Below are positions 4,581-45,211 of a stretch of 46,987 bases of DNA, piece by piece. Numbering within the stretch: the first letter of the stretch is position 1; each line of letters starts with the position of its first letter. The stretch is from a virus (taxonomy: Duplodnaviria > Heunggongvirae > Uroviricota > Caudoviricetes). The DNA is taken from the IMG/VR virus record IMGVR_UViG_2526164667_000034. One strand, written 5' to 3'. The notes under the pieces are model-generated. The model ran no database searches and was not told where the DNA came from. It was given only the letters and a program-made list of their open reading frames with translations. Position numbers and translations under genes: made by a program.

Positions 4581-4946
4581 ATGATTGATGTCTTAGGACC
4601 GGAGAAACGCAGACGGCGTACCACACAGGAAAAGATCGCAATTGTTCAGCAGAGCTTTGAACCAGGGATGACGGTCTCCCTCGTTGCCCGGCAACATGGT
4701 GTAGCAGCCAGCCAGTTATTTCTCTGGCGTAAGCAATACCAGGAAGGAAGTCTTACTGCTGTCGCCGCCGGAGAACAGGTTGTTCCTGCCTCTGAACTTG
4801 CTGCCGCCATGAAGCAGATTAAAGAACTCCAGCGCCTGCTCGGCAAGAAAACGATGGAAAATGAACTCCTCAAAGAAGCCGTTGAATATGGACGGGCAAA
4901 AAAGTGGATAGCGCACGCGCCCTTATTGCCCGGGGATGGGGAGTAA
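4581..4946 (+). CDS. insC: IS2 transposase OrfA (InsC)
   Basis: Track ORF 4536..4946; true start taken at [18 protein letters not shown]... (121 aa), recognised as IS2 InsC. Confidence 0.85.
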
Positions 4947-5809
4947 GCTTAGTCAGCCGTTGTCTCCGGGTGTCGCGTGCGCAGTTGCACGTCATTCTCA
5001 GACGAACCGATGACTGGATGGATGGCCGCCGCAGTCGTCACACTGATGATACGGATGTGCTTCTCCGTATACACCATGTTATCGGAGAGCTGCCCACGTA
5101 TGGTTATCGTCGGGTATGGGCGCTGCTTCGCAGACAGGCAGAACTTGATGGTATGCCTGCGATCAATGCCAAACGTGTTTACCGGATCATGCGCCAGAAT
5201 GCGCTGTTGCTTGAGCGAAAACCTGCTGTACCGCCATCGAAACGGGCACATACAGGCAGAGTGGCTGTGAAAGAAAGTAATCAGCGATGGTGCTCTGACG
5301 GGTTCGAGTTCCGCTGTGATAACGGAGAAAAACTGCGAGTCACGTTCGCGCTGGACTGCTGTGACCGTGAGGCACTGCACTGGGCGGTCACTACGGGCGG
5401 CTTCAACAGTGAAACAGTACAGGACGTCATGCTGGGAGCGGTGGAACGCCGCTTCGGCAACGAGCTTCCGGCGTCTCCAGTAGAGTGGCTGACGGATAAT
5501 GGTTCATGCTACCGGGCTAATGAAACACGGCAGTTTGCCCGGATGTTGGGGCTTGAACCGAAGAGCACGGCGGTGCGGAGTCCGGAGAGTAACGGCATAG
5601 CAGAGAGCTTCGTGAAAACGATAAAGCGTGACTACATCAGTGTCATGCCCAAACCAGACGGGTTAACGGCAGCAAAGAACCTTGCAGAGGCGTTCGAGCA
5701 TTATAACGAATGGCATCCGCATAGTGCACTGGGTTATCGCTCGCCACGGGAATATCTACGGCAGCAAGCCAGTAATGGGTTAAGTGATAACAGGTGTCTG
5801 GAAATATAG
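4904..5809 (+). CDS. insD: IS2 transposase OrfB (InsD), DDE catalytic domain
   Basis: 301-aa ORF overlapping orfA in the -1 frame (frameshift fusion architecture of the IS3 family); recognised as IS2 InsD. Confidence 0.85.
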
Positions 5810-7136: not shown

Positions 7137-7204
7137 GTTGGTTTTTCTCCACGAATTTACCGACAACCGAAGCCCTGACTGTTCCAGCAGTTGGGGCTTC
7201 AACT

Positions 7205-25027: not shown

Positions 25028-27459
<2,432 letters not shown>

Positions 27460-29790: not shown

Positions 29791-29929
29791 CATTTTGCAG
29801 ACCTCTCAGCCTGCGATGGTTGGAGTTCCAGACGATACGTCGAAGTGACCAACTAGGCGGAATCGGTAGTAAGCGCCGCCTCTTTTTATCTCACTACCAC
29901 AACGAGCGAATTAACCCATCGTTGGGTCA

Positions 29930-29958
29930 AATTTACCCAACTTTATTCAATAAGTCAA
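29930..29958 (-). promoter_or_regulatory. Late promoter pR' with overlapping qut region
   Basis: Minus strand TTGACT-17 bp-TAAATT, about 45 bp downstream of the Q stop, matching lambda pR' as recalled. Confidence 0.8.
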
Positions 29959-30000
29959 TATCATGCCGTTAATATGTTGCCATCCGTGGCAATCATGCTG

Positions 30001-30624
30001 CTAACGTGTGACCGCGTTCAAAATGTTGTCTGCGATTGACTCTTCCTTGTGGCATTGCACCACCAGAGCGTCATACAGCGGCTTAACAGTGCGTGACCAG
30101 GTGGGTTGAGTAAGGTTTGGGATTAGCATCGTTACAGCGCGATATGCGGCACTTGCTGGCATCCTTGAATAGCCGACGCCTTTGCATCTTCCGCACTCTT
30201 TCTCAACAACTCTCCCCCACTGCTCTGTTTTTGCTATATCAACCGCACGGCCTGTACCGTGACAATCTCTGCATCTTGCGCCCGGCGTCGCGGCACTACG
30301 GCAATAATCCGCATAAGCGAATGTTGCGAGCACTTGCAGTACCTTTGCCTTAGTATTTCCTTCAAGCTTTGCCACGCCACGGTATTTCCCCGATACCTTG
30401 TGTGCAAATTGCATCAGATAGTTGATAGCCTTTTGTTTGTCGTTCTGGCTGAGTTCATGCTTACCGCAGAATGCAGCCATTCCGAATCCGGCTTGTGATT
30501 GCGCCATCCCCATAGCAGCCATCACATCAGTACCGGAAAGAGAGTCAGAAGCCGTAGCCCGTGGTGAGTCACTCATCATCGGGCTTTTTGGCGAATGAAA
30601 TTTAGCTACGCTTTCGAGTCTCAT
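30001..30624 (-). CDS. Q: Late antiterminator Q (lambda-type)
   Basis: 207 aa MRLESVAKFHSPKSPMMSDSPRATASDSLSGTDVMAAMG... with zinc-binding CRDCHG...CGRCKG, recalled as near-identical to lambda Q. Confidence 0.95.
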   Translation of the reverse strand: MRLESVAKFHSPKSPMMSDSPRATASDSLSGTDVMAAMGMAQSQAGFGMAAFCGKHELSQNDKQKAINYLMQFAHKVSGKYRGVAKLEGNTKAKVLQVLATFAYADYCRSAATPGARCRDCHGTGRAVDIAKTEQWGRVVEKECGRCKGVGYSRMPASAAYRAVTMLIPNLTQPTWSRTVKPLYDALVVQCHKEESIADNILNAVTR

Positions 30625-30809
30625 CGTCTTCCCTTTTTGCCTGGCGTGACCATCAGGACGCCGTTAACTATTACGTGACGCTCGCCTTTGCTGTCTCGGT
30701 TGTACTTGAGCACTGTTCCTCTTGCGCAGGAAAGCATCCTTGCCACTTCGGTCTGATTTCCTCGTGTCTGGATAAGAAGCTCTGGTATCGTTTGAATTGT
30801 GGCGTTCAT
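30621..30809 (-). CDS. ninH: NinH-like protein
   Basis: 62-aa ORF with ...GNQTEVAR...RGTV.KY...IVN.VLMV motif shared with lambda NinH; directly upstream of Q. Confidence 0.75.
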   Translation of the reverse strand: MNATIQTIPELLIQTRGNQTEVARMLSCARGTVLKYNRDSKGERHVIVNGVLMVTPGKKGRR

Positions 30810-31893: not shown

Positions 31894-32258
31894 TATTGGA
31901 TTCTCTGCATCATGAGAAAGACAATCATGGCGGCTCGGAGGGGATTTTCATGTATAGCTCGCTTAGATTTACAGTAGGCCACACCGCGTGCACCCCACTC
32001 ATCTTCATCGAGATTGATAATGCTAATCCTGTATTTTTCAATAATCGGCCATGCGTCTGCTGGGTTTGCGCATGGGTTAAAGGAACCGCGCTCAACTTCT
32101 ACTTCAACTGCGTCTCCGTTTACAATGTCTCCCTCAAATGAGACAAACACCATCGCGCCATTCTCACCTTCTTTGTAATCCGGTGATCCGTTATGAATGG
32201 CTTCGAATACCGCCACGTTAATTTCAAAATCACTTAACTGTGAATAATCCATTGTCAT
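31893..32258 (-). CDS. Hypothetical nin-region protein
   Basis: Track ORF 31893..32294 (GTG); start trimmed to MTMDYSQL, whose ATG overlaps the ninE stop (ATGA). Confidence 0.55.
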
Positions 32259-32431
32259 TTCCTCGCACGATGTCTTAGCCACCGGATATCCCACAGGTGA
32301 GCCGTGTAATTGAAGGTTTTTACGTCAGATTCTTTTGGGATTGGCTTGCGTTTATTTCTGTAGCGTTTCGTTGGAAGGTATTTGCAGTTTTCGCAGATGA
32401 TGTCGGTGAAACTTCGTCGCTGTCGCCTCAT
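32255..32431 (-). CDS. ninE: NinE
   Basis: [58 protein letters not shown], recalled as near-identical to lambda NinE. Track ORF extends to 32521. Confidence 0.85.
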
Positions 32432-32955
32432 GCCGCCCTCCTGACGCCCTGCCCGATCGCCATCAATGCCGCTTTGGATACGGTAGTAAACATCCGTCGA
32501 GGACTGATGAACGGTCGCCAAATCAGCAGCATGGAGCCTTTACTGTTTCCCTTCTTCTCCAGCCCTGTCGATGGTTCGATAAAATTAATCCGTCCATCAG
32601 TGATAATGCGAACTTCGTCAACACTCTCCAGAGCCTTGCTGAACCATCCGACAGACATATCCTCTGGCACAAGCATCACTACCGTCTGTCGCTGTTGTAT
32701 GCACTGCTCAGCGGCTTTTTCCACCCACGGCCTGATATTGCTGTACGGTGGGTTATTCCAGATTGCACCGTGGCTTATCCACTCAGAATTGAGTGCGTCG
32801 TCGGCCTCAGTTAGCCAGTGAGCGCACAGAGCATTTTTGTCGCTCGCAGCTGAATCCAGCCAGAATCCAAACTCAATATCCAGCGCATCAAAAAGCCAAA
32901 GCGGCGTTTGCCAGCAGTCCTTGTCGTGTGCTGGTGTATTTGATTTGATAGTCAT
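32428..32955 (-). CDS. Phage DNA N6-adenine methyltransferase (orphan Dam-like)
   Basis: 175-aa ORF with catalytic motif NPPYS and a C-terminal AdoMet-binding-like region; occupies the ninC/ninD slot. Confidence 0.8.
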
Positions 32956-33404
32956 GCAGCCCTACCTTTTCGTTGTGACCATTCATACTCTCGCCGGGAG
33001 TCATCACTCCACCGCACGTTGCGCTCTGAGCCGAACCAAAACATGATTTCGATAAGCTCAGTCATGCTGGCCTTTCGCATTTTGCTGGTACGCACGCCAA
33101 GCATGACAACGCCACCATCGATACCAGGCACACTTCGTTGCTCCAGTTTTTTGGTCTTAAGCCACAGGGCAGTGAACAGGTCTTTCCAGTCCTCCGGCGC
33201 AAGTCTCTGTCCATGCCAAAGCACCTGACGTGATACGTCCTGCAATAACGCCCACATAAGGCGGTTTTGAGGATTGCTCCGCTTTGGTTCTTTAATGTGG
33301 ACTTCGTGAGGTGACTTGTCGTCGATCGGAAGTGAGAGTATTGCGTCTATGGCGTTGTTTCTGATTGCTTCGTTGCGAAGCATGTATATTTGCTTCATTG
33401 TCAC
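32952..33404 (-). CDS. ninB: NinB (Orf) recombination mediator
   Basis: 150-aa ORF; ...QNRLMWALLQDVSRQVLWHG...WKDLFTA and C-terminal [21 protein letters not shown] parallel lambda NinB. Confidence 0.85.
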   Translation of the reverse strand: MTMKQIYMLRNEAIRNNAIDAILSLPIDDKSPHEVHIKEPKRSNPQNRLMWALLQDVSRQVLWHGQRLAPEDWKDLFTALWLKTKKLEQRSVPGIDGGVVMLGVRTSKMRKASMTELIEIMFWFGSERNVRWSDDSRREYEWSQRKGRAA

Positions 33405-33405
33405 C

Positions 33406-33612
33406 TCAACTCACAAAACGCCACGCCATTTTTGCTACAGCGACAGGCGCAACACCGATAATCACCCACAGGAAAATGCTACCGAAAAGCACACCAACCA
33501 GGTCTTTACCTTCGCCTACCAGCCGGACAAAACTGCTGGCAACCACAATGAACGTCGCCACCATCCACATAGCACCGAGAATCCTCAATGCAGAAAAAAT
33601 CAACTCAACCAC
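33406..33612 (-). CDS. Hypothetical small two-TM membrane protein
   Basis: 68-aa hydrophobic track ORF between orf96 and ninB; no RBS assessed. Confidence 0.35.
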   Translation of the reverse strand: MVELIFSALRILGAMWMVATFIVVASSFVRLVGEGKDLVGVLFGSIFLWVIIGVAPVAVAKMAWRFVS

Positions 33613-33684
33613 GATTTACTCTCCCCCAAATAAAAAGGCCTGCGATTACCAGCAGGCCTGTTATTAGCTCAGTGATGTAGATGG

Positions 33685-33975
33685 TCATCTTTTAACTCCA
33701 TATACCGCCAATACCCGTTTCATCGCGGCACTCTGGCGACACTCCTTAAAAATTAGGTTCGTGCTCATCTTTCCTTCCCGTTCTTCCTTGGTAGCAAACC
33801 GGTAATACACCGTTCGCCAGACCTTACCTTCGATAACCAGAAGACCTGCCCGTGCCATTTTAGCCGCGGCCTGATTTATGCTGGTTACTGTTGCGCCTGT
33901 TAGCGCGGCAACGTCCGGCGCACAGAAGCTATTATGCGTCCCCAGGTAATGAATAATTGCCTCTTTGCCCGTCAT
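33685..33975 (-). CDS. Hypothetical phage protein downstream of P
   Basis: 96-aa ORF whose start overlaps the P stop; no family recognised. Confidence 0.55.
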   Translation of the reverse strand: MTGKEAIIHYLGTHNSFCAPDVAALTGATVTSINQAAAKMARAGLLVIEGKVWRTVYYRFATKEEREGKMSTNLIFKECRQSAAMKRVLAVYGVKR

Positions 33976-34673
33976 ACACTTGCTCCTTTCAGTCCGAACT
34001 TAGCTTTGAGTTCTGCGATCTTCGCCAGAGCCTGTGCACGATTTAGAGGTCTACCGCCCATGACAGGAAGTTGTTTTACTGGTTCAGGGATCGCCTCACC
34101 ACGGTTAATTCTCGCAGTCATATGGACAAGCTCATCTGCGGCCTTACGGCGTAATTCCGCATCAGTAAGCGCATTGGCCCGCATGTTCTGATACAGGTTG
34201 GTAACCAGCCAGTAGTGCGCGTTTGATTTCCACGGATAAGACTCCGCATCCGGATACAGGCCTCGCTTCCGGCAATACTCGTAAACCATATCAACCAGCT
34301 CGCTGACGTTTGGCAGTCCGGCGATAACGGATGCTTCTTCCCGGCACCATGCAACAAACTGCCCGGGTGATGGCAGGAATGGTCGATTCTGCCGACGGGC
34401 TACGCGCATTCCTGCGTTAACCTGTTCCATTGTGGTGATCCCGTTTTCCCGGAAAGCCAGAACCCACTGGCGGCGGATTTCGTTCAGTTCGTTCTGGTCA
34501 CGGTTAGCCAGGCTCGCCGGGAAAGTTGCCAGTAACTGGCTGAACACACCGTTGATGATCTGCGCTACCTGTTGTACCTGCGGCTTTTCGTCGTACTGTT
34601 CCGGCATGTTGTTGGCGATCCGACGCATCTGCTCACGGTCAAAGTTAACCATCTGTGCGGCGATGTTTTTCAT
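33972..34673 (-). CDS. P: Replication protein P (DnaB helicase loader), lambda-type
   Basis: 233 aa MKNIAAQMVNFDREQMRRIANNMPEQYDEKPQVQQVAQIING..., recalled as near-identical to lambda P. Confidence 0.95.
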   Translation of the reverse strand: MKNIAAQMVNFDREQMRRIANNMPEQYDEKPQVQQVAQIINGVFSQLLATFPASLANRDQNELNEIRRQWVLAFRENGITTMEQVNAGMRVARRQNRPFLPSPGQFVAWCREEASVIAGLPNVSELVDMVYEYCRKRGLYPDAESYPWKSNAHYWLVTNLYQNMRANALTDAELRRKAADELVHMTARINRGEAIPEPVKQLPVMGGRPLNRAQALAKIAELKAKFGLKGASV

Positions 34674-40474: not shown

Positions 40475-40611
40475 CCATTAATCACCAGATGCTTCGTGCG
40501 GCACAAAACAAAGCAGTAATAGCCAGATTTATTGGTGATTCAAAAATGTGGCTTGAAGCAAATAAAGCGATGAAATCAGCTATCAACCTTCCGTGGTATC
40601 GCAGGAAATGA
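40459..40611 (+). CDS. Small hypothetical protein (kil-position)
   Basis: Hand-translated about 50 aa (MRNEIAINHQMLRAAQNKAVIARFIGDSKMWLEANKAMKSAINLPWYRR...), overlapping the cIII end. Coordinates approximate. Confidence 0.35.
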   Translation: MRNEIAINHQMLRAAQNKAVIARFIGDSKMWLEANKAMKSAINLPWYRRK

Positions 40612-40778
40612 GTTTCACAGATAACTGGTCAGACGAAGAATTCATTCGTCAGATGAAAGAATTAATCGGTAACGAAGGAGATATTCATGTCACTTGCAAC
40701 CACAGTGAAGGAGAGCAAGTTACAGAGACGCATGTACACGCAGCAGGCGTTAATGTATCGCCAGAAGGGAGATCGTGA
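40608..40778 (+). CDS. Small hypothetical protein
   Basis: Track ORF 40593..40778; ATG at MSFTDNWSDEEFIRQ overlaps upstream stop (ATGA). Confidence 0.35.
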   Translation: MSFTDNWSDEEFIRQMKELIGNEGDIHVTCNHSEGEQVTETHVHAAGVNVSPEGRS

Positions 40779-44968: not shown

Positions 44969-45010
44969 GCCTGATTTGCAGGTTCGATTCCCTATTCGGA
45001 GATAGCACTC

Positions 45011-45211
45011 ATGCAACACGAACTACAACCTGATTCACTGGTTGATTTGAAATTCATCATGGCTGATACTGGCTTTGGTAAAACCTTCATCTACGACCGG
45101 ATTAAGTCCGGCGACCTGCCTAAAGCCAAAGTTATCCACGGTCGAGCAAGATGGTTATATCGTGACCATTGTGAATTCAAAAATAAGCTCTTAAGCCGCG
45201 CTAATGGGTAA
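45011..45211 (+). CDS. xis: Excisionase / AlpA-family DNA-binding protein
   Basis: 66-aa ORF; ...LKFIMADTGFGKTFIYDRIKSGDLPKAKVIHGRARW... is a typical AlpA/Xis winged-helix motif. Last phage gene before attR. Confidence 0.75.
   Translation: MQHELQPDSLVDLKFIMADTGFGKTFIYDRIKSGDLPKAKVIHGRARWLYRDHCEFKNKLLSRANG

Follow-up and report, generated by a model that had tools for sequence, protein, structure and literature searches.

An orphan N6-adenine methyltransferase gene in the nin region of a P22-like prophage: an allele of M.EcoVT2Dam with predicted GATC specificity

M.EcoVT2Dam, the Dam-like methyltransferase of the Shiga toxin 2 (Stx2) phage VT2-Sakai, is a protein of 175 amino acids (aa) whose gene lies between ninB and ninE and overlaps each of them by 4 nucleotides (nt); the same gene is carried by the phages 933W, Phi24B, Min27, HK97, Nil2 and Lahn2. 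The founding members of its family (Pfam PF05869, NCBIfam TIGR01712) are two orphan enzymes, HP1 Dam of Haemophilus phage HP1 (orf13, 173 aa) and T1 Dam of coliphage T1 (237 aa), and a further homologue with the NPPY motif, M.Phi93DAM (140 aa), is encoded between the terminase genes of a phage whose Gram-positive host has no Dam of its own. The gene considered here, referred to as dam, belongs to the IMG/VR virus record IMGVR_UViG_2526164667_000034 (Caudoviricetes), a stretch of 46,987 nt that is called the window in what follows. Its coding sequence (32428..32955, minus strand; ATG start, 175 aa; list of open reading frames, ORFs; RefSeq WP_000153270.1) has the length, the position between ninB and ninE and the 4-nt overlaps of the VT2-Sakai gene, although VT2-Sakai is a Stx-converting phage whereas the window holds a P22-like, non-Stx prophage located at argW and equipped with a lambda-type Q gene. 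The context differs from that of the founding members, HP1 dam being placed after replication genes and T1 dam after a helicase gene. As argued below, dam very probably encodes a small, active DNA N6-adenine methyltransferase dependent on S-adenosylmethionine (AdoMet), which is an allele of M.EcoVT2Dam; its most likely role is the upkeep of GATC methylation on phage DNA.

The product of dam was identical to that of the VT2-Sakai gene (BAA94133, M.EcoVT2Dam) at 174 of 175 aa, I60V being the only substitution, and was 100% identical to a protein of phage Nil2; by this comparison, dam is an allele of an enzyme that was already known. At the DNA level, 12 nt differ between dam and its VT2-Sakai counterpart, 11 of them at codon position 3, which amounts to 11 synonymous codon changes and a single, conservative nonsynonymous one (I60V). 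Because the differences are nearly all third-position and synonymous, this pattern makes the dam frame a translated gene under purifying selection. An ORF of 174 aa on the opposite strand (32297..32821) was rejected as an alternative gene and considered as a shadow of dam, since the differences from VT2 fit third positions of the minus strand and since it is the minus-strand frame that matches the family hidden Markov models (HMMs) end-to-end. Rfam and tRNA scans detected no RNA element within or near dam.

The translation in the ORF list includes WNNPPYSN, and the codons of N68-P69-P70-Y71-S72, which form the motif IV catalytic and adenine-binding loop, were located by decoding the DNA by hand at 32740..32754 (minus strand), where the reverse complement reads AAC CCA CCG TAC AGC. 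On the upstream side, the TGA of ninB (32954-32952) and the ATG of dam (32955-32953) share the ATGA at 32952..32955; on the downstream side, the TGA of dam (32430-32428) and the ATG of ninE (32431-32429) share the ATGA at 32428..32431, both on the minus strand and both read directly in the DNA. The Shine-Dalgarno sequence of ninE, AGGAGG, sits within the 3' end of dam. A previous sequence-only reading of this DNA, which had announced a 175-aa protein with an NPPYS motif (here residues 68-72) linked to both neighbours by ATGA overlaps, was thus accurate on each of these points. The overlaps of ninB with ninC and of ninC with ninD in lambda are also 4 nt long, so that ATGA overlaps, compared in this way, are common in nin operons generally and are not particular to dam; they argue for co-translation, without implying any special link of dam to its neighbours.

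Family membership was assessed with profile searches. The PF05869 'Dam' match (8.3e-65; 218 bits for a cut-off of 28.1) covers profile positions 1-167 of 169, the match to the equivalog model TIGR01712 phage_N6A_met (3.3e-79; 264.2 bits for a cut-off of 97.05) covers all positions, 1-165 of 165, and phrog_111 'DNA methyltransferase' is matched at 8.6e-88. By these profiles the product is a full-length phage N-6-adenine-methyltransferase of the PF05869/TIGR01712 family. It is made of a single small domain, within the family size of about 140-240 aa and with no separate target-recognition domain. The best PADLOC matches of dam were orphan methyltransferase ('oMTase') models, the same scan applied to seven neighbouring gene products gave no match to a defence protein, and no restriction endonuclease gene is adjacent among the neighbours (NinB, NinE, NinX, NinF, YbcO-like, RusA, NinH and Q). 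The earlier identification as an orphan phage N6-adenine methyltransferase is therefore supported by the family HMMs and the PADLOC orphan models, as well as by the invariant residues described below.

The target of the enzyme can be predicted from its relatives. The cloning laboratory's later paper states that the Dam-like activity of VT-2, converting GATC to Gm6ATC, had been shown (PMC7139368), and a methylome study of Escherichia coli strains that produce Shiga toxin (STEC) lists GATC for the M.EcoVT2 homologues in its Table 3 (PMC6602927). HP1 Dam and T1 Dam, with which the dam product shares 38% and 33% identity respectively, are given as GATC enzymes in the literature (PMC7139368). The most distant comparison is with M.Phi93DAM, represented by its orthologue PhiM5_03 from a lactococcal 936-type phage (about 31% identity to the dam product); the link to M.Phi93DAM was made through the primer reported for its cloning, the coding portion of which is identical to the start of the PhiM5_03 gene. 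For M.Phi93DAM, the modification was determined as G6mATC by single-molecule real-time (SMRT) sequencing and by DpnI/DpnII digestion, including after heterologous expression, and the enzyme guards DNA against DpnII (PMC4190342); in our analysis, no other experimental result speaks as strongly for an anti-restriction role of the PF05869 family. Since the dam product is 99% identical to M.EcoVT2Dam and since three distant relatives are also GATC enzymes, G(m6A)TC is a well-supported prediction for its target. The sequence-only reading had considered that target specificity cannot be read from the sequence, which does not hold in this case, given the near-identity to an enzyme with a reported GATC target and the agreement of the HP1, T1 and Phi93 relatives. 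For annotation purposes, the target motif can thus be entered as GATC instead of 'unknown'.

The frequency of the site itself was also recorded. GATC is rare in the whole window: 124 sites were counted (1 per 379 bp), for an observed/expected ratio of 0.55 under a second-order Markov model. Among 4-base palindromes only CTAG is more depleted, although for most palindromes the expected count seems too high. Such scarcity is worth noting in a phage with its own GATC methyltransferase. Counter-selection against GATC is a known feature of enterobacteriophages, and the depletion of the window is consistent with it.

Conserved residues were identified by aligning the VT2, HP1, T1 and Phi93-type lineages. 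D13, W15, T17, P18, L33, D34, N41, W59, N68-Y71, E114, R122, F125, N137 and K139 were invariant in the four lineages, and these positions were likewise unchanged in 40 enterobacterial homologues. A loss of conserved AdoMet-binding residues on alignment, the point at which the sequence-only reading had left itself exposed, did not appear (D13, W15, T17, P18, L33, D34 and NPPY all being among the invariant positions). The order of the elements (DxWxTP, LDxxA, NPPYS, GRxxF, NxK) is the same in HP1 Dam and T1 Dam, T1 Dam being extended by 45 residues at its N-terminus and carrying an insertion of 14 residues relative to the dam product, and M.Phi93DAM lacking the loop that corresponds to residues 126-135. 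On the DNA, the N-terminal motif X-like element D-x-W-x-T-P (D13-C-W15-Q-T17-P18) is encoded at 32902..32919 (minus strand), and the motif I-like strand and loop (L33-D34-S35-A36-A37-S38) at 32842..32859 (minus strand, decoded by hand). Methyltransferases of the M.TaqI type have their motifs in the order X - I - IV, which the DxWxTP, LDxxA, NPPY order of the dam product resembles; because of this resemblance LDxxA is tentatively assigned to AdoMet binding, D34 being presumably the AdoMet-binding acidic residue.

If the enzyme works as amino-methyltransferases generally do, AdoMet would be held in a single Rossmann-fold domain by two N-terminal elements, DxWxTP and LD(S/A/P)A, the adenine to be modified would flip into the pocket formed by N68-P-P-Y71, and the methyl group would be moved directly to N6. 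Because the protein is a single domain without a recognition domain, the segment G121-R-x-x-F ... N137-x-K139 is proposed as the DNA reader, and would be the most plausible element for recognition of GATC. A search of the PDB by sequence (E<=1) gave only matches at chance level (SdiA, E 0.18; a DHH protein, E 0.72), with no family structure detectable. An AlphaFold2 model of the dam product was built from the 40 homologues, and reached moderate confidence (mean predicted local distance difference test, pLDDT, of 74.5; predicted template modelling score, pTM, of 0.75). The reading of GATC by an enzyme of 140-240 residues with no recognition domain, and the retention of a second GATC methyltransferase by phages whose hosts are dam+, concern the whole family and not dam alone.

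The name Dam is shared by enzymes of other origins, from which the dam product has to be kept apart. With E. coli Dam and T4 Dam its structure-based identity is 6% and 3%, respectively; the Pfam scan gave no match to PF02086 MethyltransfD12, the cellular and T-even Dam family (class alpha), and no Dam chain appeared in the PDB search at E<=1. E. coli Dam and T4 Dam have DPPY and not NPPY, arrange their motifs in another order, possess a distinct domain for DNA recognition, and exceed the dam product by about 100 residues. The dam product is thus 'Dam' by function and not by descent, and shares with the host and T4 enzymes only the general methyltransferase fold.

Two other groups of orphan adenine methyltransferases, carried by prophages of pathogenic E. 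coli or Haemophilus and often annotated in the same words, were considered as possible identities and rejected. M.EcoPA8orf6770P, from a STEC prophage, is an MT-A70-like enzyme with a DPPW motif, encoded as gp5 beside gp6 (PNB-2) and not in the nin region (PMC10810198); it methylates 16S rRNA together with PNB-2, and in the Stx prophage its gene lies towards the left end (PMC10810198). The dam product has NPPY and not DPPW, PF05869 as its sole Pfam match, and nin genes as neighbours. As for the non-specific adenine methyltransferases (Hia5, M.EcoGI and M.EcoGII), the paper on Hia5 does not mention the VT-2, HP1 or T1 Dam, and M.EcoGII is assigned to class beta (PMC7544214). Because the families differ, the unusual properties of M.EcoPA8orf6770P and of M.EcoGII/Hia5 cannot be transferred to dam, and annotations should keep dam apart from the similarly labelled MT-A70 rRNA methyltransferase and non-specific M.EcoGII.

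The neighbourhood of dam was compared with that of lambda. The gene order is ren-(68-aa ORF)-ninB-dam-ninE-ninX-ninF-...-ninH-Q, entirely on the minus strand (ORF list and RefSeq), for ninB-ninC-ninD-ninE in lambda. The recombination mediator gene ninB (NinB/Orf; PF05772, 7.6e-49) occupies 32952..33398 with the RefSeq start, a GTG start at 33404 being also possible; ninE (58 aa; PF05322, 3.7e-42) occupies 32255..32431, and the NinX neighbour matches PF10765. DNA homology to lambda spans P, ren and the hairpin described below, ends at 33619, and restarts at 32424, 7 nt inside ninE, from which point ninE is 96% identical to its lambda homologue. The block comprised between these limits contains the 68-aa ORF, a 933W/VT2-type ninB and dam, in place of lambda ninB-ninC-ninD; the replacement of ninC/ninD by dam that had been proposed earlier is therefore valid relative to the lambda gene order and to the homology break at 33619-32424.

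Between ren and ninB, the terminator scan predicted an intrinsic terminator hairpin (33636..33659, minus strand), in a region where 34 nt are identical to lambda 40596-40629, also located between ren and ninB; we take this hairpin to be tR2. In lambda, transcription past tR2 depends on N antitermination. Its place in the pR operon, beyond a tR2-type hairpin, probably makes dam a lytic gene of the delayed-early class, dependent on antitermination: it would be silent in the lysogen and its product would be formed, as a delayed-early one, after induction or infection, with translation coupled to that of ninB and ninE. The expression pattern of the Phi24B gene, linked to the lytic cycle, agrees with this (PMC3342100).

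The prophage itself is nearly identical to prophages of E. coli 7_33_46A and DEC9B. From left to right it carries intS (argW side), an O-antigen acyltransferase gene, the tailspike gene, immI with the sar RNA, head genes, terminase genes, lysis genes and Q, followed by the nin genes, P, O, cII, cro, cI, erf and torI/xis, with csc sucrose genes at the right end. Three insertion sequence (IS) elements interrupt its genes. An IS3-family element of 1.3 kb lies in the portal gene (19587-20891; OrfA HTH_Tnp_1 at 19639-19965, OrfB rve at 19962-20852, ALIL frameshift pseudoknot RF01497 at 19920-20036), and an IS21-family element of 1.95 kb lies in the gene of a Rha-family regulator (25505-27457; IstA at 25591-26613, IstB at 26610-27392); both are absent from the otherwise near-identical prophage of E. 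coli 7_33_46A. The third, an IS3-family transposase gene with a programmed frameshift (about 4581-5809; L003 5081-6309), has broken the tailspike gene up, leaving a pair of pseudogene fragments, and is common to the window and to the 7_33_46A prophage. Because of these three insertions, the prophage is probably defective and unable to make particles, and dam is probably carried in it as intact cargo.

With moderate confidence, the upkeep of GATC methylation on replicating phage DNA is considered as the most likely role of the enzyme. Where the host Dam is limiting or absent, the phage Dam would ensure that the GATC sites of fast-replicating phage DNA stay fully methylated; genomes packaged in this state would withstand methylation-sensitive GATC restriction of the DpnII/MboI type in the next host and escape nicking by MutH. 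Several points weigh against this interpretation or parts of it. A GATC methyltransferase looks redundant for steady-state methylation in a host where Dam is already present, and the anti-restriction role was demonstrated in the distant lactococcal relative only (PMC4190342). The GATC assignment is drawn from 99% identity to an enzyme whose activity comes via later citing papers. In the AlphaFold2 model, pLDDT falls below 50 at residues 42-51 and 67-70, the NPPY loop included, so that neither the catalytic geometry nor the recognition segment is fixed by the model. Lastly, dam of Phi24B, which is identical to that of VT2-Sakai, was first found in a screen of lysogen cultures, and some expression in the lysogen is possible (PMC3342100).

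This last point leads to a different use of the same activity, in which the enzyme would act in the lysogen as an epigenetic factor, adding to the host Dam and altering host or prophage expression, for example by stabilising lysogeny or by tuning spontaneous induction, and would not be devoted to replicating phage DNA. The authors of the protein screen suggested that the Phi24B enzyme may supplement the host Dam, which is needed for stable lysogeny of 933W (PMC3342100), and another methyltransferase of a Stx prophage does regulate spontaneous induction (PMC10810198), but the latter belongs to another family (MT-A70, with the DPPW motif). The quantitative PCR (qPCR) pattern of the Phi24B gene was moreover linked to the lytic cycle (PMC3342100), dam of the window is preceded in the pR operon by a terminator identical to tR2 and shows no nearby promoter-like site of its own, and an extra enzyme would alter few sites where the host Dam already methylates GATC. 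We regard a lysogen-side function as unlikely. A change of substrate, to RNA, to single-stranded or recombination-intermediate DNA, or to adenines in near-random contexts, perhaps with a partner such as the translationally coupled NinB, could be imagined for a 175-aa enzyme that lacks a target-recognition domain, but appears very improbable because of the near-identity to a characterised GATC enzyme. Some novelty could also lie within a GATC enzyme, if the site were read by an unrecognised mechanism (an obligate dimer, or the GRxxF...NxK segment), or if its translational coupling to the recombination mediator NinB, conserved in lambdoid phages, mirrored a physical or functional partnership, or if the protein had single-stranded DNA, recombination intermediates or RNA as a second substrate; there is a precedent in the unrelated prophage enzyme that becomes an rRNA methyltransferase once paired with the product of the neighbouring gene (PMC10810198), and we hold it quite improbable that any of this applies to dam.

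It is possible, though we lean against it, that dam is now inert cargo, functional in principle and deprived of a role by the inability of this prophage to complete a lytic cycle and by the lack of any useful expression. The IS insertions in the portal, rha-family regulator and tailspike genes point in this direction, but dam and its neighbours are intact, and neither early-operon expression nor DNA replication following derepression needs the portal or the tailspike, so that the enzyme could still be formed on induction. This possibility concerns the present use of the gene and not its identity, and is compatible with a role of the enzyme in the upkeep of GATC methylation on phage DNA.

The gene is widespread. 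Of 5426 complete E. coli genomes, 1566 (about 29%) carry the 528-bp dam at 95% DNA identity or more, and a genome may hold as many as five copies. Many STEC strains of the O26, O103 and O111 types have a 100% identical gene, and RefSeq names its product 'phage N-6-adenine-methyltransferase'. The value of dam as a discovery is small, given that RefSeq already names the gene, that an enzyme nearly identical to its product has been cloned and characterised, and that about three in ten complete E. coli genomes have it. Beyond E. coli, a search of 1.84 billion cluster representatives returned 8734 related clusters at E<=1e-3, 2358 of them reaching E<=1e-10, and a tblastn search of a phage collection found relatives of the dam product in 1901 records, among them phages of Escherichia, Klebsiella, Vibrio, Lactococcus and Gordonia. 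In some distant relatives (P0139, P0140, P0144, P0147, P0156 and P0241; about 46-51% identity), the Dam-type domain is C-terminal in proteins of 500-690 aa, and by these alignments fused versions of the small Dam-type methyltransferase exist.

Mosaicism is visible on both sides of dam. Joints were located at 29910-30631 and 33619-34100, Q and the P-ren-tR2 segment being 97-99% identical to lambda, the ninB-dam block being of the 933W/VT2 type (95% identical to VT2-Sakai) and the virion genes being P22-like. From VT2-Sakai, ninB differs by 41 nt and 11 aa, all in codons 4-53, for only 12 nt in dam; because of this clustering, a recombination joint inside ninB is suggested. The 68-aa hydrophobic ORF between tR2 and ninB (33406-33612, minus strand; RefSeq hypothetical WP_000229807.1) had no Pfam or PADLOC match.

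At a greater distance from dam, the sar antisense RNA is present as a full-length match to Rfam RF00262 (90.6 bits; 7137-7204, plus strand), in a P22-type immI region beside antirepressor and Arc-family genes. The integrase gene intS (1-1158, next to argW and on the tailspike side) and torI/xis (about 45010-45210, at the end of the pL operon and next to the csc genes) are at opposite ends of the prophage; a split arrangement of integrase and excisionase is that described for elements of the KplE1, HK620 and Sf6 type.
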